From assembly GCA_050872145.1 (NCBI GenBank), contig JBNMGG010000005.1, positions 12,140 to 76,139 of the forward strand: DNA of 64,000 nucleotides, in the 5' to 3' direction. The notes beneath the pieces are model-generated. The model was not told where the DNA came from and made no database searches. It worked only from the letters and a program-made list of their open reading frames with translations. Shown one piece after another: positions 7,901 through 60,898 of the stretch; within the stretch, counting starts at the first letter, position 1, and each line of letters starts with the position of its first letter. This DNA is from Candidatus Enteromonas sp. Its GTDB lineage: Bacteria > Bacillota_I > Bacilli_A > RFN20 > CAG-826. The translations under genes were made by a program, and so were the position numbers.

Positions 7901-8340
7901 TTTTCTTTTCCTCCTGAAATCCCCTCTTGCATGAGGGTTTGCTTCATCTTCTTCAGATTTTGGATGAAGTCCTTTTGCGAGAACGGCAGCGATTCGTAAA
8001 CTCGCTTTTCCAAGGCATAGAGATCCTTCAAGGCCGAATCCGCGAACTTCTTTCCCTCCGCGTTGAGGCAGATGGACATTTGCCTTTTCTCGCCGGGGAT
8101 TTGTTCCATGATCAGATAGCCCTTGCTGAACAACTCTAGAACCAGCGTGTTCACCGTGGTCTTGGGCATTTCCCAGTCTTTGGCGATTTGGATTTGGCTG
8201 TGCTTCTTCCCATCGTTCAGCGCGTAGAGGACCCAAAGCAAATTGCCCTTCACGTTCTTCGATCGCGCGTAATCTTCGTAGAGGCCGTCGATCGCGTAGA
8301 GCTCTTTGCCAAATTCATAGAAGAATGTCCTGCTGTCCAT
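7897..8340 (-). CDS. MarR family transcriptional regulator
   Basis: 147 aa with a wHTH core (HSQIQIAKDWEMPKTTVNTLVLELFSKGYLIMEQIPGEKRQMSICLNAEGKK). There is a 4-nt overlap with the downstream gene. Confidence 0.8.
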   Translation of the reverse strand: MDSRTFFYEFGKELYAIDGLYEDYARSKNVKGNLLWVLYALNDGKKHSQIQIAKDWEMPKTTVNTLVLELFSKGYLIMEQIPGEKRQMSICLNAEGKKFADSALKDLYALEKRVYESLPFSQKDFIQNLKKMKQTLMQEGISGGKEK

Positions 8341-8409
8341 TTTGAAATCCCAATTCGTATTTTAAAAGGGAACTCCGACTTTGCAACCCCCAAAGAAAAA
8401 GGGGAACGT

Positions 8410-8751
8410 TCATTCCCCCGTGATTTCGGTAATCTCGAATTCGAACCCCTTTTCGATGGGACAGTCCTTGCATCCGCATTTGGGGCAGGTGGTTTGCCCA
8501 TGCTCAGGGTGGAAGACTTCCCCGCATTTGGGGCAGCGGGCGGAGGAGGGGAGGTATTCGATCTCCAGTTTCGCCCCTTCAAGCCTCGTCCCTTCGGAAG
8601 CCGGTCCCCAGCAATCCTGCATAAAACGCGGCAAAACCCCCGTAACCTCTCCGACTTGCAGCTTTATTTTCTGAATTTTATGCAAACCCTCTTCGTCCAT
8701 CAGGTTCTCGAGGGTCCGCACCATTTCGGTGCAAAGGCTGAGCTCGTGCAC
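8410..8751 (-). CDS. hypA: HypA/HybF-type nickel metallochaperone-like zinc-ribbon protein
   Basis: A GTG start at 8751 lies 2 nt after the upstream stop, with GGAGGGAG in front. The product is VHELSLCTEMVRTLENL...KIKLQVGEVTGV...CPKCGEVF...CPKCGCKD..IEKGFEFEI, which is the canonical HypA layout at 113 aa. Confidence 0.7.
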   Translation of the reverse strand: MHELSLCTEMVRTLENLMDEEGLHKIQKIKLQVGEVTGVLPRFMQDCWGPASEGTRLEGAKLEIEYLPSSARCPKCGEVFHPEHGQTTCPKCGCKDCPIEKGFEFEITEITGE

Positions 8752-8753
8752 GG

Positions 8754-9746
8754 TTATTCTCCCTCCACGGGCATCGGCTTCTTTTTCTTGGCCAGGCGGA
8801 TGAGGAAGAATACCCCAACCGCGCCCAACACGAAGAGGACGGCACCGATGATGTAATCCCAAGTTTGAATGGAGCCGGAGATGTACTTGGGGTAGATGTC
8901 GGAGTTGATGAACATGGAAACCAACGAACCCAAGATCAAACCCAGGATGCCGTAGAAAGTCGGGACCCTTTTCTTTTCCAAAAGCTTCCCCATGACTTTA
9001 GAGGAAACCACTAACCCGGCGACGGCCCCAAGGACCAATAGGAGCAAAAGGGCGATCCCGGTTCCGATGAAGGCGGAATCCCCATTCCCCCAAAGGCTCA
9101 AAGCAACCTGTTCGGGATTGCCTTTATCCGCGGGCATGAAGGTGTAGAGGATGGGGTAATACATCCCTAGGACCATCAAAGTCATGGATCCCGAAATGCC
9201 GGGGACGATGAAAGAGAAGGCAGCCAAAAAGCCGCAGACAGGAACTAGAAGGTACATCCACCACGTCCGGTTGAGGAGCTGCTCCCCCAAATTGACTTTG
9301 CAGAGGGCCGTGAAGACCCCTAGTCCCGCAGCGAGAAGGAAGCAAAGGAAAAAGCAGAGGACGTAGATTGCTATTTGCTTTCCGCTTTCCCCTTTCTTCA
9401 ATTCGGAAACGGCCACGGGGAGGGAACCAAACACCAATCCCGCAAAGAGTCCCGTCAAAGTGAACGGGGCAACGGAATAGCCTTTTTTGATGCCGACGAA
9501 AGCCCCCAAAGCCCCCAAAGCCAAACCAAGCAAATAGGGGAGGAGGAACAAAAAGGATTTTTTAAAGTTTTTTCGTAGCGAAGAAATCGCCTGAATCAGG
9601 GAATCGTAGCACCCCTCCACGACGGCGATGGTGCCCCCGCTTAATCCCGGGATGGCGGCGGACACGCCTAAGCTGGCGCCCTTGGCGAGGTCCAAAAAGA
9701 AGCCGCCCGCGCCGCGTTTTTCGTTTTTTGTTTGCTGTTTTTGCAT
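8754..9746 (-). CDS. DUF368 family membrane protein (family implicated in undecaprenyl-phosphate translocation)
   Basis: Polytopic protein. The duplicated motifs AIPGLSGGTIAVV and IVPGISGSMTLMVLG are typical of DUF368. Confidence 0.75.
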   Translation of the reverse strand: MQKQQTKNEKRGAGGFFLDLAKGASLGVSAAIPGLSGGTIAVVEGCYDSLIQAISSLRKNFKKSFLFLLPYLLGLALGALGAFVGIKKGYSVAPFTLTGLFAGLVFGSLPVAVSELKKGESGKQIAIYVLCFFLCFLLAAGLGVFTALCKVNLGEQLLNRTWWMYLLVPVCGFLAAFSFIVPGISGSMTLMVLGMYYPILYTFMPADKGNPEQVALSLWGNGDSAFIGTGIALLLLLVLGAVAGLVVSSKVMGKLLEKKRVPTFYGILGLILGSLVSMFINSDIYPKYISGSIQTWDYIIGAVLFVLGAVGVFFLIRLAKKKKPMPVEGE

Positions 9747-9838
9747 AGGCCAAGTTTAGTCGATGGATTTTTCTTTGTATAGGATAGGGGTTTTGCCTTT
9801 TGTAAATTCTTCATTCGGGGGCTTGACAAAACAAAATT

Positions 9839-9853
9839 TTGGTAGCGCTTACA
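9839..9853. promoter_or_regulatory. cre-like (CcpA-type) palindromic site
   Basis: TTGGTAGCGCTTACA has one mismatch to WTGNAANCGNWNNCW and is intergenic. Confidence 0.35.
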
Positions 9854-9889
9854 TCTTTCCCTTTTCACCGATTTCTTCCTCGCTATAAT

Positions 9890-10115
9890 GGTGGTGCTGG
9901 AGGGAAATCTCCAGTCCGCCAAGAGGGATTTGTCCCCCTACATTGCGAACGTTTCGGGAATCCTGATCGCGCTCGCCCGTTGTTGAAAGCCCATCTTGAA
10001 TGGGAATCCTGAAGGCAGACGAGGATGCCCACCTCTTGAAAAAGAGGGACTACTCGCGCCTCTTGGCTAGTTTGCCTCCTTTCAGCCCTGGGTGCCTCCT
10101 TCCCAGGGCTTTTCC
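9890..10115 (+). ncRNA. candidate structured RNA or cis-acting leader of unknown class
   Basis: An ORF-free, GC-rich stretch follows a TATAAT at 9884-9889. Visible elements:
- local hairpin CTGGAG-GGAAAT-CTCCAG;
- long-range complementarity GCCAAGAGG (9919-9927) / CCTCTTGGC (10059-10067);
- duplicated GGGAATCCTGA;
- hairpin CCTCTT-GAAAA-AGAGG;
- closing hairpin AGCCCTGG...CCAGGGCT (10084-10110) plus a short T tract, 60 nt before the 10172 start. Confidence 0.4.
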
Positions 10116-10171
10116 TTCGCCTTGATAAATAGAAGGAATTCTTTGAAAATGGAGCGGAAAGGTGGTTTCCC

Positions 10172-11104
10172 ATGATTTTTGGATTAGAACCCGTTCAAGC
10201 TCTTCTTCTGTATTTGTTCCTCTTCTTAACCGGCTGCATGCTCGGATACCTTCTGGAAGTGTTCTTCCGGCGCTTTTTCACCGCGAAGAAATGGGTTAAC
10301 CCCGGCTTCATGAGGGGCCCTTGGCTCCCGCTTTATGGCTTTGGGGTGGTCATCATGTTCACCGTGGTCATCCTTTTGCTTTATTACCTGACTTCCTGGC
10401 CTTTCTATAACCCCTTCGGCTTCTATGATTTCCTCGGCGAAGCCAGGGGCCCGAGCTATGCCGACCTTTTGCCGATCGCCATCATGGGCTGCTCGATGAT
10501 CGCCCTCGAATTCGTCGCCGGGCTCATCTTCGTGAAAGGGTTCAAAGTCAAGCTTTGGGACTACACGAACATGAAGGGGAACATCATGGGCATCATCTGC
10601 CCCCAGTTCAATCTTATTTGGTTCGCTTTGGCCATCGCCTTCTATTACGGTCTCAACCCCTTCGTCTATAAGCTTGCCCAAGAAGCTTATGCTTATATGT
10701 TCGGCGTCTCCGGGGTAAGGGAAGCCCACTTCGGCTTCATCTTCATTCTCGGGATGGTCTATGGGGTCATGCTCATCGACTTCGTTTTGTCCGCGGGGGT
10801 GTTCACCCGCGTCTCCAAATGGGCAAAGAAATCCGGCATGAAGCTCCGTTACGACGAAATGAGAATTAAATACAAAGAGGGGCTGATCTCCGCCCGCCTC
10901 AAACTGCAGGAAGCCTTGCCCGCCCCGGTGAAAAACGTGATCGAAAATCACAAGGAAAAAATAAAAGAGGGGGATTCTGCGCCGCAAAAGGCCGCCTCTT
11001 GGGTCTCAAAGCTGATTTTCATCGATCCGAATAAATCGAAGGACACCGCCTCCAACTATGACGAAAACGGCCGCCCCATCTCTATGGAAGAGCCGAAAAA
11101 GTAA
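10172..11104 (+). CDS. DUF1113 / putative ABC-transporter type IV (CmpB-like) membrane protein
   Basis: CMLGYLLEVFFRRFFTAKKWVNPGFMRGPWLPLYGFGVVIMF matches the family N-terminal pattern. The protein is polytopic, with AAAGGTGG upstream of the ATG. Confidence 0.6.
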   Translation: MIFGLEPVQALLLYLFLFLTGCMLGYLLEVFFRRFFTAKKWVNPGFMRGPWLPLYGFGVVIMFTVVILLLYYLTSWPFYNPFGFYDFLGEARGPSYADLLPIAIMGCSMIALEFVAGLIFVKGFKVKLWDYTNMKGNIMGIICPQFNLIWFALAIAFYYGLNPFVYKLAQEAYAYMFGVSGVREAHFGFIFILGMVYGVMLIDFVLSAGVFTRVSKWAKKSGMKLRYDEMRIKYKEGLISARLKLQEALPAPVKNVIENHKEKIKEGDSAPQKAASWVSKLIFIDPNKSKDTASNYDENGRPISMEEPKK

Positions 11105-12743
11105 TCGTGATCGTCGTTCCCTTTCCGAGTTTGGAAAGAAGTTTGATTTCCCCGTTCCGCGCTTCGCAGATGTGCTTGACGATGGCTAACCCAAGCCCCG
11201 TCCCTCCGCTTTCCCGAGAACGGGATTTGTCCACGCGATAGAAACGCTCAAAGACCCGTTTTTGGTCCTTGGACGCGATGCCGATGCCGTTGTCTTGGCA
11301 AGAGAATCCGTTCGGGAAGAGGATGAGCTTGGCCCATCCTCCTTTTTTGTTGTAACGGATCGCGTTCTCCAAAAGATTCTTCAAAACCGAATAGGCTTCC
11401 TGCGGGGACAAAGGAAGGGAGCCTTCTCCGGAAACGGAGAGGGCGACGTCCTTTTCCTGCGCGAAGGCGGAGAGGTCGGAGAGGGCTTCCTCGGCGATGG
11501 GGGCTAGGGGCGTGGGGGAGGCTAGGGGCGGAAGCTCCTCGGATTCCATTTTCGAAAGCGAGAGCATCTCGCTGACGAGCCCTAGCATGCGCTTGGCCTC
11601 TTTGGCGATGGAGGAGGAATAAGCGAGGACGTCGGGGTCTTTTTCCTTCAGGGCGATGAGCTCGTTGAAACCCATGATGGAAGTCAGGGGCGTTTTCAAT
11701 TCGTGGCTGGCGGAATCGAAGAACTCCTTCCTCATTTTGCTTTGCTGCTTTTCGGCGGTGACGTCGGTGAAGACGAGAAGCCGGATTTCGGGCGAGGAGG
11801 TATACGTCAACAAGAAGGTTGATCCCCCTTTTTCAAATTCGGCGTTGGAGCTAGGCCCTTTCTTAAAAAGGGAATCCAAAAGGGAGCCGATCCCGAGGTC
11901 TGCATCGCGGTGGGGAAGGTCTGGATTCAAATCGAACAAAGAAGAAGCGGAGGGATTGCAGAAAAGGATGTTCCCTTTCTCGTCCAAAGCCAAAATCCCG
12001 TCTTGGACGTGATCCAAAACGAGCTTCAGGCGATTTCGTTCCTCTTGGAAGGAACCCATTGTTTTCTGAAGCTGTTCGGCAAGGGAGGAAATGTCGGCGA
12101 GGATCGGCTGAAAATCCGGGTCCTTGGAAATTTCCTCCGGGGGGAGGGGCTTCCCGGAAAGGACATCGTCCAATTGGCCTTTGACTTTCTTTAAAGGCTC
12201 GGTGGATTTGCTCACAAGCAAAAAGGACAGCCCGATGGAGGCACCTAAAGTCAGCAGGAAAACCAAAATCATCCAAGGGACGTAGGAATTCAAAAAGGAA
12301 GCGAAAGAAGAAAGCCTTAAGGCGACGCGGAGGTAGACAAAACCCCGCGGATCGGAAGAAGAGGGGACTTTTACGGCGTAATAAAGGTAATCAATCCCGA
12401 TGGTTTCCGAACGCCGGGAATAGATTTTCCCCTTTGTTTCGCCCACGAAAGGAGCGGTTTGGATCTCCGGACGGCTTAGGTGGTTTTGGTCGGAAACGGC
12501 TTGGGAATCCAATAAGACGGTCCCATCGGAGGCGATGATCGTTTCGCGGACGGAAGGGTCGCTGACGGTTAGCTTCGTCGAACTTTCCCTATATCCCTGC
12601 GCGTAGGCTTCCGTGAGTTGGTAAAGAGAGGATTCAGCTTGGGATTTGATGGTGGTGGAAGCGGCTCCGATCCCGCACCCCAGCATCGTCGAAAGGGAGA
12701 GGGTGATGATCAATACGCTGAAGCCGATGGTTTTCTTTTTCAT
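11082..12743 (-). CDS. phoR: sensor histidine kinase, PhoR-like
   Basis: The ATG at 12743 overlaps the regulator stop (ATGA). It has an N-terminal TM segment, the HisKA box FFDSASHELKTPLTSIMGF, and HATPase motifs (NLLENAIRYNKKGG, DNGIGI, GGTGLGLAIVK). It is the last gene of the pst-pho operon. Confidence 0.8.
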   Translation of the reverse strand: MKKKTIGFSVLIITLSLSTMLGCGIGAASTTIKSQAESSLYQLTEAYAQGYRESSTKLTVSDPSVRETIIASDGTVLLDSQAVSDQNHLSRPEIQTAPFVGETKGKIYSRRSETIGIDYLYYAVKVPSSSDPRGFVYLRVALRLSSFASFLNSYVPWMILVFLLTLGASIGLSFLLVSKSTEPLKKVKGQLDDVLSGKPLPPEEISKDPDFQPILADISSLAEQLQKTMGSFQEERNRLKLVLDHVQDGILALDEKGNILFCNPSASSLFDLNPDLPHRDADLGIGSLLDSLFKKGPSSNAEFEKGGSTFLLTYTSSPEIRLLVFTDVTAEKQQSKMRKEFFDSASHELKTPLTSIMGFNELIALKEKDPDVLAYSSSIAKEAKRMLGLVSEMLSLSKMESEELPPLASPTPLAPIAEEALSDLSAFAQEKDVALSVSGEGSLPLSPQEAYSVLKNLLENAIRYNKKGGWAKLILFPNGFSCQDNGIGIASKDQKRVFERFYRVDKSRSRESGGTGLGLAIVKHICEARNGEIKLLSKLGKGTTITITFSALP

Positions 12744-13420
12744 CGGAGAACGTAGCCAATCCCGCGCACGGTGTCGATGCCGGCTTGGGACCCTTGGATT
12801 TTGGCGCGGATTTTCGAAACGTGGATGTCGATGGTCCGGGTTTCGATTCCGGAAGAGGCAATCCCCCAAACCGCGGAGAGGATTTCGTCTTTGGAAAGGA
12901 CCTTATTGGGGTTTGAGATGAAATAGGACAGAAGGGAAAACTCTTTCTTCGCTAAGGAAAGAGGGACCCCATTTAGGCAAATTTCGTGGGCTTTGGAGTC
13001 GCAGGAAAGGTCTTTGTAAACCTTCTTGGAGGAATTGTCTTCCCGTTGAGCGCGACGGAGGTTCGCTTTGATTCGGGCCAGCATCTCCGCGACCGAGAAA
13101 GGCTTGGAGATGTAATCGTCGGCCCCGAGGTTCAATCCCTTCACCTTGTCGACCTCCCCCGTTCGGGCGGAGACGATGATGATGGGGATGGATGAGCATT
13201 TCGGATCCTCCTTCAAGTCGGCAAGCAATCGGAAACCATCCTCCCCTTCGAGCATCAAATCCAAAAGAATCAGGTCGATTTTCTCTTCGCGGAGGGCTTC
13301 GAAGAGCTCCTTGCCGCTTTTTAATGGGACCGGGGTAAATCCACCCAAAGGCAAAGCGGCCGCGTAGAGATCGCGGATGGAGGCTTCGTCGTCGACGCAG
13401 GCAATGTGGGGCTGTGACAT
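12740..13420 (-). CDS. phoP: OmpR/PhoB-family response regulator (PhoP-like)
   Basis: Receiver domain (IACVDDEASIRDLY...DLILLDLMLEGEDG) plus a winged-helix output domain (LSKDEILSAVWG...RTIDIHVSKIRAKI..IDTVRGIGYVL). Confidence 0.85.
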   Translation of the reverse strand: MSQPHIACVDDEASIRDLYAAALPLGGFTPVPLKSGKELFEALREEKIDLILLDLMLEGEDGFRLLADLKEDPKCSSIPIIIVSARTGEVDKVKGLNLGADDYISKPFSVAEMLARIKANLRRAQREDNSSKKVYKDLSCDSKAHEICLNGVPLSLAKKEFSLLSYFISNPNKVLSKDEILSAVWGIASSGIETRTIDIHVSKIRAKIQGSQAGIDTVRGIGYVLR

Positions 13421-28591: not shown

Positions 28592-29237
28592 TTTGGGAAA
28601 GTGCTCCGTTTTTCAAGTAATAGACTTTGTCGAATTCGTCGATCAAGGTTCGGTCATGGCAGGCGCAGAGGACGATGGAGGAATTCTTTCGGGCTTCTTC
28701 GCGCAGCAAATGGATGACCGCTTTCGATAAATCCGCATCGAGGTGGCTTGTGGGTTCATCGGCGATCAGCACCTTTTTCTTCAATAGCAACGCCCGGGCG
28801 ACGGCTACCCTTTGCTGCTCGCCGGAAGACAAAGAGGAAGCGGGGGATTTGAGCAGGGGATCTAGCAGCAAAGCCCCGCAAATGGAATCGAAGTCTTCTT
28901 GGGAATAAGGAAGCTTTTGCAGGGATAAAGGAAAAAGAATGTTCTCCTCCGCGGTTAAAGGGGATAGGAGGTTCGCCTCAGGGGAAATATAGGAGAAGTT
29001 GGCGATTCGGAAATCTTCCCGCTTCGCCCTCCCTAGGCTCGAATAGGAGAAGCCATTGAGGGATAAGTTTCCTTGATCGGGTTTCAACAATGTGGAAACG
29101 ATGTTCAGCAAAGTGCTTTTGCCCGATCCGGACTCCCCGAAAACGGAGACGAACGCTCCATCCTCCACCGAAAGGGACAAATGGTCCAAAATCGTGCGGC
29201 TTCCAAAACTTTTGCAGATTTGCTCAATCTTCAGCAT
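28575..29237 (-). CDS. ABC transporter ATP-binding protein
   Basis: Walker A GESGSGKSTLLN, signature LSSGEQQRVAVARAL, Walker B VLIADEPTSHLD. It overlaps both flanking permease genes. Confidence 0.9.
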   Translation of the reverse strand: MLKIEQICKSFGSRTILDHLSLSVEDGAFVSVFGESGSGKSTLLNIVSTLLKPDQGNLSLNGFSYSSLGRAKREDFRIANFSYISPEANLLSPLTAEENILFPLSLQKLPYSQEDFDSICGALLLDPLLKSPASSLSSGEQQRVAVARALLLKKKVLIADEPTSHLDADLSKAVIHLLREEARKNSSIVLCACHDRTLIDEFDKVYYLKNGALSQNEEES

Positions 29238-33201: not shown

Positions 33202-33338
33202 AGTCTTTTCCTCCTTTTGTTGATTAAGACTTTTTGTCGTTGGGGGTACTGTGGCTGGAGACGGAATTCCGAAGCAAAGAAGAAAAACGCAAAAATGAGA
33301 GCAGCTTCCGCGTGGTTTTCTTGTTTGCTTCCTTTCCT

Positions 33339-33408
33339 GGCTCGTAGTGCCCGGCTTTTTGGACCGGACGTAGAGACTGTCGGACCCTATCTCCGACATA
33401 TACGACCC
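33339..33408 (-). promoter_or_regulatory. purine riboswitch, guanine/hypoxanthine class
   Basis: The minus strand reads GGGUCGUAUAUGUCGGAGAUAGGGUCCGACAGUCUCUACGUCCGGUCCAAAAAGCCGGGCACUACGAGCC.
- P1 is UCGUA/UACGA.
- P2 is GUCGGA/UCCGAC.
- J2/3 is AGUCUCUAC (compare AGUUUCUAC in B. subtilis xpt).
- P3 is GUCCGG/CCGGGC.
- The J3/1 reading ACU places a C at the specificity position. Confidence 0.85.
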
Positions 33409-33544
33409 ATCGACGTTAAATAAATATAAGGCATTGCAACGGCTGAAAAAGATGAAAGCGGTTTATCGATATAAACTCATTTTTTGGGGTTCATCTAAGA
33501 GACGTCCATGATAAAATAACGGGCTAGAAAGAAGGTTGTTCCCT

Positions 33545-40531: not shown

Positions 40532-40637
40532 CAGCCTTCTTGAGTAGAAAGTTCGCGTTAAGTGCCTTGCGGATGGGAGGTCGCCCAAGGACGAAGGGGG
40601 AACCCGCGGTGGACTTTCGCTGCCGCTTGGTGGGCTG
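40532..40637 (+). promoter_or_regulatory. THF (tetrahydrofolate, folT-motif) riboswitch
   Basis: GAGUAGAAAGUUCGCGUUAAGUGCCUUGCGGAUGGGAGGUCGCCCAAGGACGAAGGGGGAACCCGCGGUGGACUUUCGCUGCCGC closely parallels the remembered Eubacterium siraeum THF aptamer (GAGUAGAUGAUUCGCGUUAAGUG...AUGGGAUGUCG...ACGAAGCGAGAGCGCGGUGAAUCAUUGCAUCCGC). It lies directly upstream of folT. Confidence 0.85.
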
Positions 40638-47626: not shown

Positions 47627-48031
47627 ATGGCAGAAGAGCAAAAGAAAAACGGTCTTCCCGAGAATCCGGACTTCGAAGTGAAAAATTACCTTTCCTCCGC
47701 CCAAATCGAAATCGTCAAAGGCGTGAAGAAAAGCGGCGCGGACGCGAGCGTTTTGGATTTGATCGACAATTTCGTTCGGGCCAATGGCAAATTGGATGCC
47801 AAATACGATGCCATGCTTCAAATCGCCAAAGACGCTTTAAACGTCGCGGGTCATCTCCCGGAATATCCTCAAACCGTCCAAGAAACGGCTCCCTTCCTCC
47901 TTTCGGTGGCGCTGCTGGATTTCTTCGTGCTCGTCGGAGTGGTGGACGAAGAGGAGGTACAGACGATGAAGGAAAGCGCCATAAAAGGCGCGGGATTCGG
48001 ATTCGACGATCCCAAAAACAACCAAGCGTGA
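47627..48031 (+). CDS. hypothetical protein, cassette gene 1
   Basis: 134 aa with GGAGGAG 8 nt upstream of the ATG. The N-terminal part is acidic and helical, and there is a hydrophobic segment APFLLSVALLDFFVLVGVV. No family recognised. Confidence 0.55.
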   Translation: MAEEQKKNGLPENPDFEVKNYLSSAQIEIVKGVKKSGADASVLDLIDNFVRANGKLDAKYDAMLQIAKDALNVAGHLPEYPQTVQETAPFLLSVALLDFFVLVGVVDEEEVQTMKESAIKGAGFGFDDPKNNQA

Positions 48032-48041
48032 GGTGCTGAAA

Positions 48042-48320
48042 ATGGGAAAAGCGAAAAAGGCTTGGGCAGAAAGAACGGAGAAAATCGAAGGGGACGTCCT
48101 TGATCTTTCAAAATCTCTCGATGAAAGCACCGCTTCGGAACTGAGCCTCCTCGCCCAATCCCAACAAAGGCAATTGGAGCAAATGACGCGCTCGGTTTCC
48201 ATTTACGAATCCTGCCAGGAAAAGCTGGGCGGGAAGGCCCTCGCGGAAATGGACGAAAAAGCCGCCACGTCCCTCGCCAATTGCTATTTTTCCCTTTTTG
48301 TAGGAGAGAAAGATGAATAA
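48042..48320 (+). CDS. hypothetical protein, cassette gene 2
   Basis: The ATG at 48042 lies 6 nt after GAGGTG, which spans the gene-1 stop. The product is 92 aa, charged and coiled-coil-like. The tracked GTG at 48033 is an alternative start. Confidence 0.5.
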   Translation: MGKAKKAWAERTEKIEGDVLDLSKSLDESTASELSLLAQSQQRQLEQMTRSVSIYESCQEKLGGKALAEMDEKAATSLANCYFSLFVGEKDE

Positions 48321-48492
48321 GCCCGCCATCGAAAAGGAAATCGCCGAGCGCGATGCCAAGATTGAAGAATCTTGTCTTGAACTGGCGAAGCGCCGGGCCG
48401 AGGAGCTTCGGAAAGAAGGGATTTCCCTCGGCGAGGTTTTCCTTTCCCAAACCAAAGAGTTGGGCCGCGCGTTCCAAAAGGAGGAGAAATGA
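48313..48492 (+). CDS. hypothetical small protein (59 aa), cassette gene 3; below the ORF-track cutoff
   Basis: My own translation is MNKPAIEKEIAERDAKIEESCLELAKRRAEELRKEGISLGEVFLSQTKELGRAFQKEEK. AGGAGAG lies upstream. The start overlaps the gene-2 stop by 8 nt, and the stop overlaps the first ATG of gene 4. Confidence 0.45.
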   Translation: MNKPAIEKEIAERDAKIEESCLELAKRRAEELRKEGISLGEVFLSQTKELGRAFQKEEK

Positions 48493-50345
48493 GAATGGCA
48501 GACATCGAAACGCCCCAAGTTCCTTCTCCTTTGCTCAGCGATCCCGAGACGCTGCCTCCTTTCCCAAATCCCTCCCTTCGCTTTCCGGAGACGGAAAAAG
48601 CCATTGGGGAATTGGAGAAGCAAAATAAGCAACTCCTCTTGCTGAAATCCCGCGTTTTGGAAACGAAACGAAAAGAGAAGGAAAACCGCGAGAATTGCGC
48701 AAAAATCATTTCCTTTTCGAATATTTGGGGCAAAACGGCCCTGCAAATTTCCTCTCTTTGCCATGAAAAGAAATACGCAAAAGCCGCTGAGTTGGCCGCT
48801 TCGCTACCCCTTAAAATCGAGGGTTCTCCCTATCCTTTAAAAGTCGAGAAAGAAGCTACGACCATCCGCCCTTGGCTGATCTGCCGATTAACCTCCCTTT
48901 CTTTCGAGGAAAAAGAAAAGCGCCATGAAAGCATTGGCAAGGACGAAGCCGAAAGGCATTATCAGCGTTGCCTCTCTTTGCCCGTAGGGTTAGAAGAGCA
49001 AAGCGAAGAGGAAAAGCTGATCGATGCCGCGAAAGGCTTTTTGTATTCTTCCTGCTCCAGCCTGCTTGAAAGCGGCGTCTCCGAGGTGAGCCTATTCTTG
49101 CCTCTCCTCCCGTTTTGGCGGATGGGCTTATCGGATAAAGTCGAAAGCGAAGCCACCAAGGCTAAGAAAGAGCGCTTCGGCCAACTTTTGCTTAACTGCT
49201 ACAACTCCTTGAGCGAAGTCTGCTTCAAAAAGAAGCGGGACTTGGAGTCGGCATTGACCCTTTTCCGCTTGAGGAACCTCTTCCCCAAAAGCGAAATCCG
49301 CCTCGCGCCTTTCCGCTACGCTTACGACGAGAAAGAGCTGAAACTCTATTTCTACGAATCAGAGGCCATCGAAAGCAAACCTGAGGAATTCGCGACCCGT
49401 GTATCGGAATTCGCTTCTTCCGTCTCTTCCCCCGATGACTTCTATTTCCTCGTATTGGCACACCTTTTGGCCCTGCAAGGCATGGAAAAAGACCGCTTCA
49501 ACGCGGTGGTCAAGGCAATCCGCCCCTTCTCCTTTGAACTGAAAATCGAATTGCTCGCCGCTTCAATCGCCTTGGGGATGGAACCCCTTCATATGCGCGC
49601 CGTGCTCGAGGAAATCGAAAGGACTCATCCCAAAAGAGGGAATTTGGAGAAATTGGGCAAGCCCCTTTTGTTTATCAAGGAGCATCTGAACGAAGCCTTG
49701 TTACTCCGCTTCAACCCCTTGCTGGAGGATTTGCTCCGCTCGCCCCACGCGCACAAAGTCGCCGAAAAAAGCAATGAGCTTGCTTTCACTTTGCTCTATG
49801 GCCACGCTCCGGAGCAATATCGCCCCCGCCTTGGCAGCAAAGCCAAACGCCCCAACATCCGCAGCTGGGGAAAAGGGACTTGGGCCTGCTATTTGGTCTT
49901 CGGGTTTTCCCTTCCCATTGTCGCCTGCTTGCTGTCTGGGGTCTTCATTTACCTTTATCGGGGCATTCCCGATCGCTATGCCTCTTACTGGATTCTGATT
50001 CCCTTCTTCTCTCTTTTGCTTTTCCTTTTCGCGACCGTCTCCGGGTGGTCCGGCAGGGATGAGCGCGGCGGGGCATATCTCCGCAGCGCCCTTTTGGGCG
50101 ATGCGATTTGGAAAGCCTGCTTAGCCGCTTCCTATTTCATCGTCCCCGCCTCGCTTCTTGGCTTCGCGCGGATTCGCTACGCACTGCTGATCGCCCCGAT
50201 TGCGGAGGGGCTTTTGGCTTTCTTCTACTGCAAACCCAGCAAGAAAACGGCCCTTTTGGATTATTTCCTCTTCGGGGCTCTCTTCGTCTCCGCCTTTTTG
50301 GCCACCGTGTTCATGGTGCTGGACATGATGTGGGGCCTCTTGTGA
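48489..50345 (+). CDS. hypothetical large membrane protein, cassette gene 4
   Basis: 618 aa. It has a Pro-rich N-terminus, a coiled-coil stretch (AIGELEKQNKQLLLLKSRVLETKRKEKEN), a long helical middle, and about 5 C-terminal TM segments. An alternative ATG at 48495 lies 9 nt after GGAGGAG. No family recognised. Confidence 0.55.
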   Translation: MRMADIETPQVPSPLLSDPETLPPFPNPSLRFPETEKAIGELEKQNKQLLLLKSRVLETKRKEKENRENCAKIISFSNIWGKTALQISSLCHEKKYAKAAELAASLPLKIEGSPYPLKVEKEATTIRPWLICRLTSLSFEEKEKRHESIGKDEAERHYQRCLSLPVGLEEQSEEEKLIDAAKGFLYSSCSSLLESGVSEVSLFLPLLPFWRMGLSDKVESEATKAKKERFGQLLLNCYNSLSEVCFKKKRDLESALTLFRLRNLFPKSEIRLAPFRYAYDEKELKLYFYESEAIESKPEEFATRVSEFASSVSSPDDFYFLVLAHLLALQGMEKDRFNAVVKAIRPFSFELKIELLAASIALGMEPLHMRAVLEEIERTHPKRGNLEKLGKPLLFIKEHLNEALLLRFNPLLEDLLRSPHAHKVAEKSNELAFTLLYGHAPEQYRPRLGSKAKRPNIRSWGKGTWACYLVFGFSLPIVACLLSGVFIYLYRGIPDRYASYWILIPFFSLLLFLFATVSGWSGRDERGGAYLRSALLGDAIWKACLAASYFIVPASLLGFARIRYALLIAPIAEGLLAFFYCKPSKKTALLDYFLFGALFVSAFLATVFMVLDMMWGLL

Positions 50346-50348
50346 GAT

Positions 50349-50675
50349 TTAATTGTCGAATTCGTCGTACTTTTTGCTGGATCCCTTGGATTTGCTAACG
50401 GGGTATTTCTCTTCGTTTTTCTTGTACTTATCCAAAACGATCTGGTCCACGTCAAAGCCATACCGATCGGCGAGCATGTAGCAGTAGGAGAGGACGTCGG
50501 CGAGCTCTTCTTTCAGCCTGTCCACGGATTTGGCCTCATGCCCCCATTGGAACAGTTCTAAGAGCTCCCCGGATTCGATGGCGATTGACTTGGCAAGATT
50601 CTCACCCGTGTGGAACTGATCCCAATCCCTCTCCTTGTTCATTTTCCGGATTTCTTCGATGACTTTCTGATTCAT
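50349..50675 (-). CDS. MazG-like all-alpha nucleotide pyrophosphohydrolase (small, YpjD-type)
   Basis: The ATG at 50675 gives MNQKVIEEIRKMNKERDWDQFHTGENLAKSIAIESGELLELFQW....LKEELADVLSYCYMLA. This is the EExxE/D-type MazG core. Length 108 aa. Confidence 0.75.
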   Translation of the reverse strand: MNQKVIEEIRKMNKERDWDQFHTGENLAKSIAIESGELLELFQWGHEAKSVDRLKEELADVLSYCYMLADRYGFDVDQIVLDKYKKNEEKYPVSKSKGSSKKYDEFDN

Positions 50676-50819
50676 AGGCGCCTCTTTTTCTCTTTTCTTC
50701 GGCCTATTTTGCTGCCAAGGGGAACGCCTCTCAAGGACCCTAAGGGCCAAAGGAAGGCGTTTCTACTATGTAGAAAAGATGGCGGCGGGTTTTCCGCTGT
50801 GCCATAATGTCGAAGTTTC

Positions 50820-52226
50820 ATGGACAATCTTTTCGACAGCGTAAATGAAAAAATGTTCTCCGTCCTCACTTCGGAGGACAAACGGGGCAATTTCGAATTG
50901 CTCCGCATCCTTTACCACCTCTCCGAATCCATCGATTACGGGGACTTCATCCCCAAGGAAGAGGCGGTTGGCGCCCTTTCGGCGTTTTTGGAAGACCACT
51001 CCGGAGAAGTGAAAGACGACGGGGAAGGCGGGGACATCACCCGAAGAAGCGCCCGCGACAAAGCCCAGGTCAAATTGCGCCAGTTCCGAAATTTCGGTTG
51101 GATCAACGAAGAGTCTTTGGGCGGGTACAACGCCCTGGTTTCCTTCACCTCCGCGGGCAAGGCCACGATGGAGTTTTTGGTCAACTACACCGAACGGGCC
51201 GAAAAACCGTTGGAATACACCGGGTACGTCTACGTCATCTATTCCACCCTGCAAAGCTTCGACTTAAGCAAATCGACCGCGATCCTTCAGCAGGTTTACC
51301 GTTTGACGAAGGAACTCATGAACTCCCTTTCCCGCCTTTCCAGCGAGATCAAGGAATTCCTCGACACCCTCACCGACAACCCCGACTTGTCCCCGCGTGA
51401 GATCCTCTCCACTTTGGTGGGCAAATATCAAAGCCAGGTCATCCTCCGCGTTTTCAATAACCTCCGCATGAGGGACAACCCCTCCCGTTATTCTTCCCAG
51501 ATTATCAATATCCTCCGCGATTTGCTCCGCGATCACATGGAGGAGCTCGTCGCCAACTCGGTTATGACCGAGGACGTCAAAGATTTGACGAAAGAACGTT
51601 ATGAGGCCATCGAAGGCGAAATCCGCGACCAAGCCGGATACGTGATTTCCTCTTTCGAGGGCATTGAGAAATACCTCGATGTCTTGGACGCCCAAAACGC
51701 GAAGTACCTTTCCTCGGCGAAGGCCAGGCTTGACTTCCTCCTTACGTCCACCAAAGACGTCACCGGGAGAATCAACGATTGTCTCAAGGCCATCGCCGAT
51801 GTCCCCGACGATTATCCTTTCGAGAATTTGATCCGCATCGAATCCTCAGGGATTCTGGACGCCAGAAGCCTTTCTAGCCCCCGCTTCCAAAGGGAGAAGC
51901 CGGTGGAAGTGGAAGTTCCGGTCCCAGAAGGGGATGCCTCCGAAGTCGAGAAGGGATTGGACCGCATCTTCGGGGAAGACCCCTATTCCAAAGAGAACAT
52001 CAACGCGGCAGCCCTTTCCTTTTTGGGGGAGAAGGAGCAAATGCCCTCCATCGACATTCCAACGCAAGAGCAAGGCGACCTCATCATGCTGATGATGATG
52101 CAACTCATCTCGCAGGATCGGAAGCTCGATTACAGTTTGGACTTCAAGGAAGACCGCTACGTCCGAATCGGGCATGAACTAGAAGAATTCCAACTGAAGA
52201 AAAAGGAGAAACGCCATGGCAGATAA
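50820..52226 (+). CDS. jetA: JetA/MksF-like (kleisin-type) subunit of an SMC-like complex
   Basis: First gene of a three-gene overlapping cluster, 468 aa and helical. The call rests on size, position and operon partners. I cannot confirm the family from motifs. Confidence 0.5.
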   Translation: MDNLFDSVNEKMFSVLTSEDKRGNFELLRILYHLSESIDYGDFIPKEEAVGALSAFLEDHSGEVKDDGEGGDITRRSARDKAQVKLRQFRNFGWINEESLGGYNALVSFTSAGKATMEFLVNYTERAEKPLEYTGYVYVIYSTLQSFDLSKSTAILQQVYRLTKELMNSLSRLSSEIKEFLDTLTDNPDLSPREILSTLVGKYQSQVILRVFNNLRMRDNPSRYSSQIINILRDLLRDHMEELVANSVMTEDVKDLTKERYEAIEGEIRDQAGYVISSFEGIEKYLDVLDAQNAKYLSSAKARLDFLLTSTKDVTGRINDCLKAIADVPDDYPFENLIRIESSGILDARSLSSPRFQREKPVEVEVPVPEGDASEVEKGLDRIFGEDPYSKENINAAALSFLGEKEQMPSIDIPTQEQGDLIMLMMMQLISQDRKLDYSLDFKEDRYVRIGHELEEFQLKKKEKRHGR

Positions 52227-52854
52227 AAACGAAATCGCCGAATCCTTCGTGGACGAATATCGGCGCATGGGGGATGGTGAGAAGCAGGAATTTGCCCGCG
52301 TCGTTTCGAAGTTCCTGAACGAAACCTTCATTCTGAAGAACAAGAAAATGGACGCCTACGATTTCTACTTCGTCCAAGAAAGGAAATCGCTGTTCACTTC
52401 TTATTTTGCTTTGACCGATTACGTTTTGGAGTTCGACCAAGAACGCGGCTTCTTCTACCCCTCCACCGAAGAAGACCGCTCCCGCGTTCGCCTCAACAAA
52501 TTCGAGACGGTCCTCCTTTTGATTCTCCGTTTGAAATACTACGAGAATTCCAAAACCGCTTCCTCGCCGGAAGACAACGCCATCGGCGTCGAAGAGCTCG
52601 TGGAGAAGGTGAACCAAACCAACATCTTCCATCCCATCAAAAGGATGACCGAATACGATCTCGCCTTGAAAAAGCTCCGCCGGAGCAAAATCCTCGATTT
52701 CAAAGGCAGCAAGCTCGAGGCTTCCACCCGCATGGTCATTCTGCCCACCATTTTGGTCGTAATGGGCCAAAGCGACATCGATTTGATCGCTGCTGAACTG
52801 GCGGCCTATTCCAAGAAAGAAGAAGGAGGGAAGAGCGATGCAGAAGCTGATTAA
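52216..52854 (+). CDS. jetB: JetB/MksE-like (DUF4194/MukE-like) subunit
   Basis: 212 aa, overlapping jetA by 11 nt, with AAGGAG upstream. LFTSYFALTDYVLEFDQERGFFYPSTEE and RLNKFETVLLLILRLKY fit the DUF4194 pattern as I remember it. The tail is acidic. Confidence 0.55.
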   Translation: MADKNEIAESFVDEYRRMGDGEKQEFARVVSKFLNETFILKNKKMDAYDFYFVQERKSLFTSYFALTDYVLEFDQERGFFYPSTEEDRSRVRLNKFETVLLLILRLKYYENSKTASSPEDNAIGVEELVEKVNQTNIFHPIKRMTEYDLALKKLRRSKILDFKGSKLEASTRMVILPTILVVMGQSDIDLIAAELAAYSKKEEGGKSDAEAD

Positions 52855-55800
52855 AATCAAGCTCATCAACTGGCAGAGCTTTTACGACAACACCGTCTCC
52901 GTGTCTGGGAACATCCTCGTCACGGGCGAAAACGGGGCGGGGAAATCCTCCATGCTCGACGCGCTTTATTTCGTTTTGGCCGGAGGGTCCAGCAAATTCA
53001 ACCTCGCCGCCACCGACGAAACCTCGCGCTCGGTCGAGACCTACATGCGTGGCACTATCGGCGCCGAGGGCAGGGAATGCCTCCGCCCGGGGCCAAACCT
53101 CATCTCCCACGTCGCCTTGGAATTCGCAAACCCCAACGGAGAATCCTTGGTTTTGGGATGCGCTTTGGAAATCCGCGACGCCGCCCCGAAGGCGGACCAA
53201 TCCTTTTACTTGATCCGCCAAGGCCACATCCAAGACGATCTTTTCTTCACTTTGGACGGGGACAAGAAAAAGGCTTTGAACGCCAAATTGCTCCAAGAAA
53301 GGGCCAACGCCCTCTTTGGGGAGAGAAGTTTTGTTCCCGTGAAAGGGACGAAGACCGAGATCAAATCGCAAATCGCGCGTGCTTTGGGGCTCGCCAGCAG
53401 CAAATACTACGAGCTCCTCCCCAAGGCCATCGCTTTCAAGCCGATCCGCGAGGTCAATGACTTCGTCTTCGACTTCCTTTTGCCCGAGCACAACGTCGAC
53501 ATCGCCTCCATCCGCGCGTCCATCCATTCCTACATGGAAATCCGCAAGGACGTCGAAATCGACGAAAAGAAGAAGGAACAGCTGGAATCCATCGTCTCCA
53601 TGAATTCGGACTATGAGGACAAATCCCTGCAGAAATCCCTTCTTCAAGCGTTAAGCGTCCGCAAAGGTAAGGCTTCCACGGAGAAGAAGATCGCCTCTTT
53701 GGAAGCCACCATCAAGACCAACGCTTCTCTCATCGGGGACGAGGCCGACAAGCGCAGCGTCATCGTCGCCCAAATCGAGGAAGTCCAGCGCAAACTCTTC
53801 GCCCTCTCGGGGCAAGATTGGTACAAAGCGTTGGAAGAGAACCAACGCAACCTCCTCCAGGCCCAGAAATCCGTCAACGATTTGATGCCCTTGCTCTCGC
53901 GCTTCAACCGCGCCATTTTGGAGGAGAGCGAACTGGCCCGCTCCCTTTCCCTCAAAGGCGATTTTTCCTCCTACATCAAATCCGAGGACTTCGCCGGCTT
54001 CCAAACCGCACTCTCCAGTTATGACGAGGCCTTTGAAAGCCGCCGGAACGCCCTCAACGAATCGATGGCCCTTCGCTGGGGCGAGCTCAATGAGGCCAAG
54101 CAAAGGCAGCAGGGCCTCCAAGTCAAACTCGACGCCCTCCGCCGTGGCCTTCCTCAATACGATTACAACGCCACAACCCTCATGAAAATCATCCACCGGG
54201 GATTCGTGGAAGAGGAAGGGCACGACATCGAAGTCCATCCTTTCTGCGAGCTCATCGACATCGCCCCCGGGGAAGAAAGCTGGAGGAATGCGGTGGAAGG
54301 GTATTTGAATACCCGCCGCTTCGACCTCTTCGTCAAAGAGGAATATTACGACAAAGCCCTTTCCCTTTACGAAAGAAACAAAGGCCCTTACCACATCCAC
54401 TCCGTCGGCTTGGTCAATGTCGCTAAACTCGACGACCGGCAGGCCCGCCCCAATTCCTTGGCCACCAAAGTCGTGACCAATGACCCCGACGCCCAACGCT
54501 ACGTCAATTACGTTTTGGGCGACATCATCTGCGTCGATTCCGAGCAGGAGCTCAAATACTACGACGCCTCCATCACCAAAACCGTGATGGTCTACCGCAA
54601 CAAAGCTTCCCGCGCCACCCGCCCGGAAATTTACGCGACCCCCTATATCGGCAAAGGCGCTTACTCCGCCCAACTCGCCTCTTTGCAGAAAGACCTGCAA
54701 AAAGCCAACGAAGAAGTCACTGAACTCAGCCAAGGCGTCGCCGAAGTTCGCAACAAGCTCAACAAAGCCTCCGATTCCAAGAGGAAGCAGCTTTTGGATT
54801 CGCCCAACTATTGGCGACAATACGCCGACCTCCTCGCTAGGCAAAACGCTTTGTCGATCGAAAGGAAGAAACTCGAGGAAGCCTCCAAAGAAGGCGGCCA
54901 CGGGTCCGGGGAGGATTATGCGAAGGAGAAAGCGGAGCTCGAAAAGGCCCGCGACGCCTCCTTGGAACTGCAAACCCGCCTGCAAGCCGAATCCGATCTG
55001 GCCGCGCGCCAGATCCGCGATCTCCAGGAAAGTTTGAAGGAATCCTCCGAGGAGCTTTCCCTGAAAACCGCCGATCCCAGGGTCGCCGAGAAACTCGAGG
55101 AATTCGCCAAGAAGAACTCCTCCCTCTCCCCGGCGGAAATCGCTAAGCAAATCGCTTCTCTGACCCCGCAGATCTCCTCTCTTGAAAGGGCCATCATCTC
55201 CGCGATGGCGACCTACATCAACGAGTTCCGCTTCGACTCCGCTGCCTCGATGGAGAACATCTCCGACTTCCTCACCGAGCACAGCAAAGTCGTTGGACGC
55301 GAGCTGGGGCAATTCAAAAAGGACCTCGAAAGGGCCCAAGCCGAATGCGCCAACGCCTTCAAGGAAAACTACATCGCCCAGATTCGCAAGCACATCCTCG
55401 ACGAGAAGGCCAACATCCGCAAACTGAACAAAGTCCTCGCGGACAAGCCCTTTGGCAACGATGGGGAAGTTTACCAATTCGTCATCACCCGCAGCAAAGA
55501 CCCCTCCTTCGGCCCTTATTACGACATCTTCACTTCCAAAGACGAAATCTCCTCCAAAGACCTCTTCCTCGATTCCTTGGACTCCAACGATTCGGCTTTG
55601 ATGAAGGACCTCTTCAACCGCCTCACCGCCACCAGTGGGGACGAAAAGCAAGAGAAGCTCCTCCGCCTCTACACCGATTACCGGATGTTCATGAACTATG
55701 ACATCCAAATCACCAACCGGGAAGGCGAGATTTCCTTCTTCTCCAAAATCTCCCGCGGCAAATCCGGGGGTGAGACCCAAACCCCGTTCTACGTCATCAT

Positions 55801-56068
55801 TGCCGCCTCCTTCGACCAAATCGTCCACGAAGGAAGCTTCGACAAAGAGGCGGGCTGCATCGTCATCCTCGACGAGGCCTTCAACAAGATGGACGCCTCT
55901 CGTATCTCGGCGACCATGTCTTACTTCAATGATTTGTCGATTCAGTTGATCATCGGCTTGCCGAGCAACAACGCGAAGATCTTGATGCCTTACGTCGATA
56001 CGACGATCGGCATCGTCAAAAGCAGGGACCGCAGCTACATCCGTACGGATACCAAGTTGGCTCAGTGA
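52838..56068 (+). CDS. jetC: JetC/MksB/MukB-like SMC-type ATPase
   Basis: 1076 aa.
- N-terminus: IKLINWQSFYDNTVSVSGNILVTGENGAGKSSMLDALYFVLAGGSSKFNLAATDETSRSVETYMRG (Walker A plus the FN.AA...R...Y.RG pattern).
- Middle: long E/K/L/Q-rich coiled-coil region.
- C-terminus: SRGKSGGETQTPFYVIIAASF and CIVILDEAFNKMD (signature-like and Walker B). Confidence 0.8.
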   Translation: MQKLIKIKLINWQSFYDNTVSVSGNILVTGENGAGKSSMLDALYFVLAGGSSKFNLAATDETSRSVETYMRGTIGAEGRECLRPGPNLISHVALEFANPNGESLVLGCALEIRDAAPKADQSFYLIRQGHIQDDLFFTLDGDKKKALNAKLLQERANALFGERSFVPVKGTKTEIKSQIARALGLASSKYYELLPKAIAFKPIREVNDFVFDFLLPEHNVDIASIRASIHSYMEIRKDVEIDEKKKEQLESIVSMNSDYEDKSLQKSLLQALSVRKGKASTEKKIASLEATIKTNASLIGDEADKRSVIVAQIEEVQRKLFALSGQDWYKALEENQRNLLQAQKSVNDLMPLLSRFNRAILEESELARSLSLKGDFSSYIKSEDFAGFQTALSSYDEAFESRRNALNESMALRWGELNEAKQRQQGLQVKLDALRRGLPQYDYNATTLMKIIHRGFVEEEGHDIEVHPFCELIDIAPGEESWRNAVEGYLNTRRFDLFVKEEYYDKALSLYERNKGPYHIHSVGLVNVAKLDDRQARPNSLATKVVTNDPDAQRYVNYVLGDIICVDSEQELKYYDASITKTVMVYRNKASRATRPEIYATPYIGKGAYSAQLASLQKDLQKANEEVTELSQGVAEVRNKLNKASDSKRKQLLDSPNYWRQYADLLARQNALSIERKKLEEASKEGGHGSGEDYAKEKAELEKARDASLELQTRLQAESDLAARQIRDLQESLKESSEELSLKTADPRVAEKLEEFAKKNSSLSPAEIAKQIASLTPQISSLERAIISAMATYINEFRFDSAASMENISDFLTEHSKVVGRELGQFKKDLERAQAECANAFKENYIAQIRKHILDEKANIRKLNKVLADKPFGNDGEVYQFVITRSKDPSFGPYYDIFTSKDEISSKDLFLDSLDSNDSALMKDLFNRLTATSGDEKQEKLLRLYTDYRMFMNYDIQITNREGEISFFSKISRGKSGGETQTPFYVIIAASFDQIVHEGSFDKEAGCIVILDEAFNKMDASRISATMSYFNDLSIQLIIGLPSNNAKILMPYVDTTIGIVKSRDRSYIRTDTKLAQ

Positions 56069-56108
56069 TGCAAAAAAGGGGGTGACCGCTTCGGCCGCCC
56101 CTTTTCCT

Positions 56109-59040: not shown

Positions 59041-59116
59041 GCCGACATGGCTCAGTTGGTAGAGCAATTCACTCGTAATGAATAGGTCGCAGGTTCGATT
59101 CCCGCTGTCGGCACCA
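59041..59116 (+). tRNA. tRNA-Thr (anticodon CGT), CCA encoded
   Basis: A cloverleaf can be drawn by hand:
- acceptor GCCGACA/TGTCGGC;
- D arm GCTC-AGTTGGTA-GAGC;
- anticodon arm ATTCA-CTCGTAA-TGAAT;
- T arm GCAGG-TTCGATT-CCCGC (one A-C mismatch);
- ACCA end. Confidence 0.85.
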
Positions 59117-59886: not shown

Positions 59887-59962
59887 GGGTGTTTAGCTCA
59901 GCTGGGAGAGCACCTGTTTGACGTACAGGAGGTCACAGGTTCGATCCCTGTAGCACCCACCA
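59887..59962 (+). tRNA. tRNA-Val (anticodon GAC), CCA encoded
   Basis: Cloverleaf drawn by hand:
- acceptor GGGTGTT/AGCACCC (one G-T pair);
- D arm GCTC-AGCTGGGA-GAGC;
- anticodon arm CCTGT-TTGACGT-ACAGG;
- T arm ACAGG-TTCGATC-CCTGT. Confidence 0.9.
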
Positions 59963-60824: not shown

Positions 60825-60898
60825 GCACCCCTAGTTTAGTGGTAGAACACTAGCTTCCCAAGCTGGATATACGGGTTCGATTCCCGCGGGGTGCTCCA
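60825..60898 (+). tRNA. tRNA-Gly (anticodon CCC), CCA encoded
   Basis: Cloverleaf drawn by hand:
- acceptor GCACCCC/GGGGTGC;
- D arm GTTT-AGTGGTA-GAAC;
- anticodon arm CTAGC-TTCCCAA-GCTGG;
- T arm ACGGG-TTCGATT-CCCGC (one A-C mismatch);
- TCCA end. Confidence 0.85.

Follow-up and report, generated by a model that had tools for sequence, protein, structure and literature searches.

The window analysed here is a stretch of 64,000 nucleotides from Candidatus Enteromonas sp. (contig JBNMGG010000005.1), and the system in question is the three-gene cluster jetABC at positions 50820-56068. The cluster comprises three overlapping, full-length type I Wadjet open reading frames (ORFs), all on the + strand, and no gene for the JetD nuclease accompanies it. 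We consider it moderately probable that this is a domesticated, nuclease-free JetABC, which would extrude loops yet not cut DNA and would be kept for an everyday task, for instance organising the chromosome, in the manner of MksBEF.

The original prediction had described three genes of 468, 212 and 1076 amino acids that overlap by 11 nt (jetA/jetB) and 17 nt (jetB/jetC), a Shine-Dalgarno (SD) sequence before genes 2 and 3 only, and a convergent membrane-type gene ending just past jetC. The same positions, sizes and overlaps were recovered in our analysis. The SD sequences are AAGGAG 5' of jetB and AGGAGG 5' of jetC, and no SD-like motif was seen in the letters read upstream of jetA (…TGCCATAATGTCGAAGTTTCATG). 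The features of the operon are as follows.

50820-52226, + strand: jetA, kleisin subunit, 468 amino acids (Pfam and PADLOC)
52216-52854, + strand: jetB, KITE/MukE-like subunit, 212 amino acids (Pfam and PADLOC)
52838-56068, + strand: jetC, MukB-like SMC ATPase, 1076 amino acids (PADLOC, Pfam and PDB match)
52925-52948, + strand: Walker A motif of JetC, G30-ENGAGKS37, from the translation (G30, N32, G33, G35, K36 and S37 invariant in alignment A1)
55565-55567, + strand: JetC F910, counterpart of F919 in E. coli JetC (in the profile alignment to 8as8_A, 'dlF' falls on 'arF919')
55763-55780, + strand: ABC signature of JetC, S976-GGETQ981 (invariant in 25 JetC proteins, JetD-positive and JetD-less)
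55859-55876, + strand: Walker B motif of JetC, I1008-VILDE1013, followed by AFNKMD (DEAF invariant in 25 JetC proteins)
56069-56108, no strand: 40-nt gap between the jetC stop (56068) and the stop (56109) of a convergent 216-amino-acid membrane-type ORF; the position of jetD in canonical systems

Profile searches bore out the family assigned to each gene in the original prediction, namely a kleisin (JetA), a DUF4194/MukE-like protein and a MukB-like ATPase (JetC). JetA matched Pfam PF18982 (6.7e-70, profile positions 12-434 of 434) and, over its full length, PADLOC JetA1 (3.2e-72). JetB matched Pfam DUF4194 (6.8e-20) and MksE (1.7e-8), as well as PADLOC JetB1 over its full length (2.3e-38). 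The kleisin and MukE-like similarity of genes 1 and 2, on which the original prediction had staked its call, is thus present by both Pfam and PADLOC. JetC was recognised by PADLOC JetC1 with 2.1e-243 (residues 1-1070) and by the Pfam families SbcC_Walker_B, AAA_29 and MukB-N, the MukB N-terminal match being weak (3.4e-6), and its ATPase motifs are intact. None of the three proteins obtained an NCBIfam equivalog, and the exact-protein look-up of the window JetC returned no record. Among solved structures, the relatives of JetC in the PDB were solely the JetC proteins of E. coli (8as8/8bfn) and P. aeruginosa. The C-terminal fragment of JetC found no match in the PDB as a single sequence, whereas a profile search gave matches: the A2 profile (JetC residues about 827-1076) matched MukB (9gm6/7nyw) with 1e-14 and E. 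coli JetC with 3e-6. For the C-terminal head of this Firmicutes-type group, MukB is therefore a better match than the E. coli and P. aeruginosa JetC proteins (3e-6 to 2e-4).

The claim that no JetD is encoded nearby withstood tblastn, a JetD hidden Markov model (HMM) and a six-frame search, which together covered 64 kb of the window genome and at most about 20 kb around each relative locus. Two JetD proteins submitted to tblastn against the window gave a single match (2598-2726, E = 0.12), which was rejected as a chance match inside an unrelated 495-amino-acid ORF (2574-4061). The JetD HMM, which represents 65 JetD proteins, identified no JetD among the window ORFs. Applied to all six frames of 447 kb of JetD-less loci, it returned a best E of 1.4 for jetD remnants, and the gaps after jetC in these loci contained no jetD pseudogene remnant. 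Additionally, no JetD was found within 10 kb on either side of jetABC in any of the JetD-less loci, about 20 in number.

Such an absence stands out against the usual arrangement. Adjacent jetD was present in 61 of the 83 evaluable loci, one locus (L077) had only a jetD fragment, and the remaining 21 had none. In the 61 JetD-positive loci, jetD starts at or just past the jetC stop, and JetD directly abuts jetC in 61 of the 62 loci with a JetD. The nearest complete systems (L007/L008, L009 and L017), about 41% identical in JetC, encode JetD proteins of 397-412 amino acids with PF09983 in a gene overlapping the jetC stop. As regards the components of type I Wadjet, JetA, JetB and JetC are all recognised in the window, and JetD encoded with the operon is missing from the 64 kb window and from the close relatives. 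The exceptional locus L077, from the metagenome-assembled genome (MAG) Eubacterium sp. RGIG2473, carries jetABC at 7874-13279 without an adjacent jetD and a C-terminal JetD fragment at the locus edge (2-415). The fragment lies 7.4 kb upstream of jetABC, with helicase-like and other genes in between, and it may belong to a second system or reflect a split arrangement.

Every relative with a JetC 58-99% identical to that of the window has jetABC without jetD in the same chromosomal position, across eight GTDB species representatives and other assemblies. The JetC identities to the window are listed below.

L001: 99%
L015, partial (NCBI name 'Bacillales bacterium UBA1624'): 97%
L002/L003 and seven further GTDB species representatives (L010-L014, L016, L022): 81-87%
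L090: 60%
L004-L006: 58%

The common synteny reads HAD hydrolase … jetABC … GNAT … cdaA-PNP-NERD-gltX, and the clade formed by the window and these relatives (the window clade) was recovered in 200/200 replicates; all trees were built by neighbour-joining only, with 200 bootstrap replicates. The host names in this clade have to be read with care. The MAGs of L010-L016 and L022 (JetC 81-87%, GuaA 83-85%) were deposited as Lachnospiraceae, Erysipelotrichaceae, Bacteroidales and Parasutterella excrementihominis, and such incompatible names on closely related 'cleanbin' MAGs make the NCBI labels unreliable. The GuaA relatives that bear a name are all 'Bacilli bacterium' MAGs.

Conservation of the operon was estimated by Nei-Gojobori comparisons. 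The three genes jetA, jetB and jetC have the lowest nonsynonymous divergence (dN) in the neighbourhood (0.09-0.15). Protein identity in the relatives is 83-90% for JetA, JetB and JetC, as against 67-69% for CdaA, 78-79% for PNP, 65% for DegV and 70-82% for MscS, and at the deepest split (the 58% level) it is 58-69% for JetABC as against 48-58% for host genes. On the same contigs, JetC and GuaA are 97/94, 87/85 and 83/83% identical, respectively. Synonymous divergence (dS) is comparable between jetABC and its neighbours, although saturated (above 1), so the high identity of JetABC reflects constraint and not recent transfer. The ORFs of JetA, JetB and JetC are full length down to 58% identity, with no frameshifts or stops. 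JetABC is under purifying selection as strong as that on GuaA, and within the window clade the JetD-less state is, on this comparative evidence, old and vertical. The operon is core-like: its synteny is fixed in eight GTDB species and other lineages, and its conservation equals that of GuaA and exceeds that of CdaA and PNP.

The surroundings in the window are those of an ordinary chromosome, with a pst operon, pyruvate formate-lyase, guaA, trpS, purine and tetrahydrofolate (THF) riboswitches and three tRNAs. The GC content shows no break at the jetABC cluster, and no mobile-element or defence-island context was seen around it within the 64 kb. Genes of defence systems are usually patchy in their presence and turn over fast.

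JetD-less loci recur outside the window clade. They comprise the groups L018-L021, L082/L032 and L046/L052 and, separately, L091. A single ancient JetD loss uniting all JetD-less loci was rejected, as they grouped together in 0/200 replicates, and L091 joined the window clade in only 9/200; the JetD-positive L017 grouped with L018-20 in 167/200 replicates. According to the trees, no fewer than three or four JetD-less lineages lie apart from one another among the JetD-positive type I systems. The JetD-less hosts are uncultured Bacilli, 'Mollicutes' or Haloplasmataceae-type assemblies, and their loci adjoin housekeeping genes (rpsO, typA, ogt, uvrA, cdaA). The 61 JetD-positive loci belong for the most part to Lachnospiraceae, Clostridium, Erysipelotrichaceae-type genera and Enterococcus, and in one of them, L007, a type I restriction-modification system adjoins JetABCD. 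With JetD-positive type I Wadjet this common in Firmicutes, the framing of the original prediction, in which the host was the unusual element, was not sustained; the unusual feature is the stability of the nuclease-less form and not the host.

The locus L091 (5973-11216, ENA ERZ12298797 contig NODE_77) also has jetABC without JetD. Its host is about as distant from the window as L004 (CdaA 54%, GNAT 53%, PNP 58%, PhoH 70%), whereas its JetA, JetB and JetC are only 33, 37 and 43% identical to those of the window, and its jetABC flanks the GNAT-membrane-cation ATPase block on the opposite side. Due to this far greater divergence of JetABC than of the host genes and the different position, L091 represents a separate JetABC lineage that is likewise JetD-less. 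Together with the window clade, it gives two distinct JetD-less JetABC lineages in the same chromosomal region of related hosts.

Upstream of jetA, two elements point to a dedicated promoter.

50760-50776, + strand: palindrome TTTCTAC-TAT-GTAGAAA, a perfect 7-3-7 operator-like repeat with its centre some 47 nt upstream of the probable transcription start
50800-50808, + strand: extended -10 element TGcCATAAT (TGCCATAAT), 11 nt before the jetA ATG

The original prediction had placed an extended -10 element at these positions, 11 nt before the ATG, and had suggested a nearly leaderless jetA mRNA. The element itself is confirmed: TG-N-CATAAT, the 11 nt spacing and the lack of an SD are kept in all relatives with a JetC at least 81% identical, and this shared architecture lends support to the near-leaderless mRNA. 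A two-hexamer promoter scan did not call the -10 element because there is no -35 match. As the element is kept whether a phoH or a mazG-like gene lies upstream, jetA is predicted to have its own promoter. The palindrome TTTCTAC-N3-GTAGAAA occurs once per locus, just 5' of jetA, in 12/12 window-clade loci and in 0/77 other loci; its half-sites are invariant, and the 3-nt spacer varies (TAT, TTT, TTA). There is one exact site in the window, where 0.17 sites are expected by chance at two mismatches or fewer. The only other near-match in the window (two mismatches), TTTCAACAATGTGGAAA at 29082-29098 on the + strand, lies inside an ABC-transporter ATPase ORF and is probably due to chance. The palindrome is probably an operator of the jetA promoter, which would make this a regulated promoter with a near-leaderless transcript.

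Taken together with the distribution of JetD, these observations suggest the following course of events and mode of action. A jetABC operon of type I Wadjet ancestry would have shed JetD, its Toprim nuclease, in the ancestor of a gut lineage of uncultured Bacilli and would since have been kept as a nuclease-free SMC complex, a functional counterpart of MksBEF. JetA as kleisin, JetB as KITE dimer and JetC as SMC ATPase dimer are expected still to form a dimer of pentamers that extrudes DNA loops with ATP. Stalled motors would then have no nuclease to recruit and would compact or organise DNA instead of cleaving it. Selection would accordingly act on an everyday function of the cell, most likely organising or segregating the chromosome. 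Expression would probably start at the operon's own extended -10 promoter, yield a near-leaderless mRNA and be controlled through the upstream palindrome; translation of jetB and jetC is likely coupled by way of the overlaps (11 and 17 nt) and of the SD site that each gene has.

Several points weigh against the domesticated, nuclease-free complex. The L077 fragment, 7.4 kb from jetABC, indicates that jetD and jetABC can become separated, and a jetD gene may lie beyond the 64 kb seen of this genome or the 20 kb or less seen of each relative. Strong conservation means that the complex is needed and is silent on what it is needed for. The saturated dS values make the dN/dS values approximate, and the nodes around 40% identity are poorly resolved in the neighbour-joining trees. 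Finally, the elements by which a nuclease would dock are intact. In E. coli JET, JetD docks through its aCAP domain on F919 of JetC, and the exchange F919E abolishes activity; the N-terminal helix of JetB is also predicted to contact JetD (bioRxiv 10.1101/2023.11.03.565488). The phenylalanine equivalent to F910 is kept in all JetD-less clades, and so is the N-terminal segment of JetB, at the same length as in JetD-positive relatives. A decayed docking surface was accordingly discarded as a feature of the JetD-less clades. This evidence is neutral, because MukB, which has no nuclease, has the same phenylalanine, and the retention of F910 is thus uninformative about a nuclease in trans.

Three readings had been offered by the original prediction: a nuclease-less accessory condensin, a Wadjet relic, and a JetABC sensor paired with a different effector. 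The first is favoured here by synteny and constraint, the second was rejected, and the third found no support in cis. The most serious competitor is a complete Wadjet in which jetD, or an equivalent Toprim nuclease, acts in trans, so that JetABC senses small circular DNA and triggers its cleavage. The retained docking elements, the detached fragment of L077 and the visible genome of 64 kb would all suit this explanation, yet the near-universal abutment of JetD and jetC, the failure to find JetD in the window or within 10 kb of the JetD-less loci, and the docking phenylalanine of nuclease-free MukB speak against it, and housekeeping-level conservation with fixed synteny is atypical of defence genes; we regard it as unlikely. 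A defence that does without a nuclease, with JetABC trapping or compacting small circular elements or disturbing their segregation or expression, appears quite unlikely. All loop-extrusion parts are intact, but a syntenic operon conserved like GuaA does not resemble the patchy, fast-changing genes of defence, and neither mobile elements nor a defence island surround it. Compaction of circular DNA by loop extrusion has been raised in a review as a possible mode of restriction by SMC complexes (PMC10586767), although the characterised type I systems need the nuclease activity of JetD to restrict (PMC10586767; bioRxiv 10.1101/2023.11.03.565488).

The remaining explanations concern the neighbours and the fate of the operon. 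An adjacent protein could replace JetD as effector, the candidates being a PhoH-family ATPase, a MazG-like pyrophosphohydrolase and the convergent membrane protein. The PhoH-family ATPase (256-278 amino acids) is co-oriented and lies about 66 nt upstream of jetA in every spanning window-clade locus apart from the window itself and L001, its twin at 99%; its identity amounts to 64-70%, both across the clade and for L091. In the window and L001, the MazG-like gene replaces phoH; no phoH remnant was found there, and the constraint on jetABC is unchanged. The orthologous phoH of L091 lies 7.6 kb from jetABC. In the other JetD-less clades no PhoH is encoded close by, and these clades lack a common neighbour. 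PhoH was consequently rejected as an obligatory partner; it is a regional neighbour and at most a dispensable associate. L004 lacks the 216-amino-acid membrane gene, the predicted promoter of jetA is kept whatever the upstream gene, and for the neighbours, including PhoH, MazG-like and membrane proteins, PADLOC gave nothing more than generic P-loop similarity to its defence models, and NCBIfam gave no support. A different effector in cis is therefore very unlikely. As for a decaying relic, in which jetD was deleted and jetABC drifts towards loss, the missing JetD fits, since the complex alone cannot cleave DNA, as established for type I systems (PMC10586767; bioRxiv 10.1101/2023.11.03.565488). 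Nevertheless, ORFs that are full length to 58% identity without frameshifts or stops, invariant ATPase motifs and the lowest dN in the neighbourhood exclude decay, and the relic is hardly credible. The positions of the upstream genes are as follows.

Window 50349-50750, - strand: MazG-like pyrophosphohydrolase (PF12643, 1.6e-20), in the phoH position
L002 7138-7920: phoH, immediately upstream of jetA
L004 7116-7925: phoH, immediately upstream of jetA
L090 5128-5922: phoH, immediately upstream of jetA

The domesticated JetABC can be set beside four known systems. Type I Wadjet, the JetABCD system represented for example by GF4-3 JET of E. coli (8as8/8bfn), has the same gene order, overlapping frames, sizes and ATPase motifs; the window operon differs in the lack of JetD, in its fixed housekeeping context instead of a defence island, and in its far stronger constraint. 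MksBEF (P. aeruginosa; mycobacterial MksB) is a three-gene kleisin-KITE-SMC operon without a nuclease; the window operon has the same three-gene architecture, with no nuclease gene found in the 64 kb or in the loci of its clade, and JetB matches MksE. In contrast to MksBEF, the window operon would have been derived independently from type I Wadjet, and occurs in uncultured Bacilli and not in Proteobacteria or Actinobacteria; its clade-specific palindrome and putative near-leaderless promoter also set it apart. MukBEF is a nuclease-free chromosomal SMC complex, as JetABC would be here, to which the JetC head profile is related, but MukB has about 1480 amino acids as against the 1076 of JetC, and the window kleisin is JetA and not MukF. 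We know of no MatP or topoisomerase IV context for JetABC here, in contrast to MukBEF. Smc-ScpAB, the usual Firmicutes condensin (PMC10197239), shares the SMC-kleisin-KITE architecture, whereas JetC belongs to a different family, as it reached 16.8 bits with the bacterial SMC model (SMC_prok_A, TIGR02169) against a cut-off of 729.4.

MksBEF has been suggested to descend from JetABCD, JetD having been lost (PMC10586767). The proposal that the chromosomal condensins MukBEF and MksBEF go back to Wadjet-like defence systems whose nuclease was lost draws chiefly on a single example from Pseudomonas and on similarity of sequence. The present case adds a JetABC clearly derived from type I, whose nearest relatives are JetD-positive and in which JetD would have been lost, followed by housekeeping-level constraint across a lineage, with further independent losses suggested in neighbouring uncultured Bacilli. 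We found no report in the literature of a JetD-less type I Wadjet lineage in Bacilli. The JetD-positive and JetD-less systems, about 41% identical, offer natural before-and-after pairs for asking which changes turn a plasmid cutter into a benign organiser. For annotation, such loci will escape tools like PADLOC and DefenseFinder or, under relaxed settings, be wrongly labelled as defence.

A bolder extension is that nuclease-free JetABC was recruited repeatedly as the principal chromosome-organising SMC complex in reduced uncultured Bacilli or Mollicutes-like lineages, where it may supplement or replace Smc-ScpAB under a dedicated regulator acting at the invariant palindrome. We hold this only as a speculative and rather improbable possibility. 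If true, the defence-to-condensin transition that has been proposed behind MukBEF and MksBEF would here be happening again, and repeatedly, in the present day.

Some minor observations concern the rest of the window. A 618-amino-acid ORF (48489-50345, + strand) with a hydrophobic C-terminal part follows two small ORFs (47627-48031 and 48033-48320), and it had no match in Pfam, NCBIfam or PADLOC. This block is syntenic where JetC is at least 60% identical and absent from the 58% lineage (L004), and it evolves fast, with 40-48% identity as against 83-90% for JetABC. The purine riboswitch (62 bits; 33325-33425, - strand) lies upstream of a 587-amino-acid ORF, and the THF riboswitch (62 bits; 40538-40630, + strand) upstream of a 189-amino-acid membrane-type ORF. 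The genes for tRNA-Thr-CGT (59041-59116), tRNA-Val-GAC (59887-59962) and tRNA-Gly-CCC (60825-60898), all on the + strand, are unclustered and alternate singly with small membrane-protein genes (YccF-like, DUF4234).

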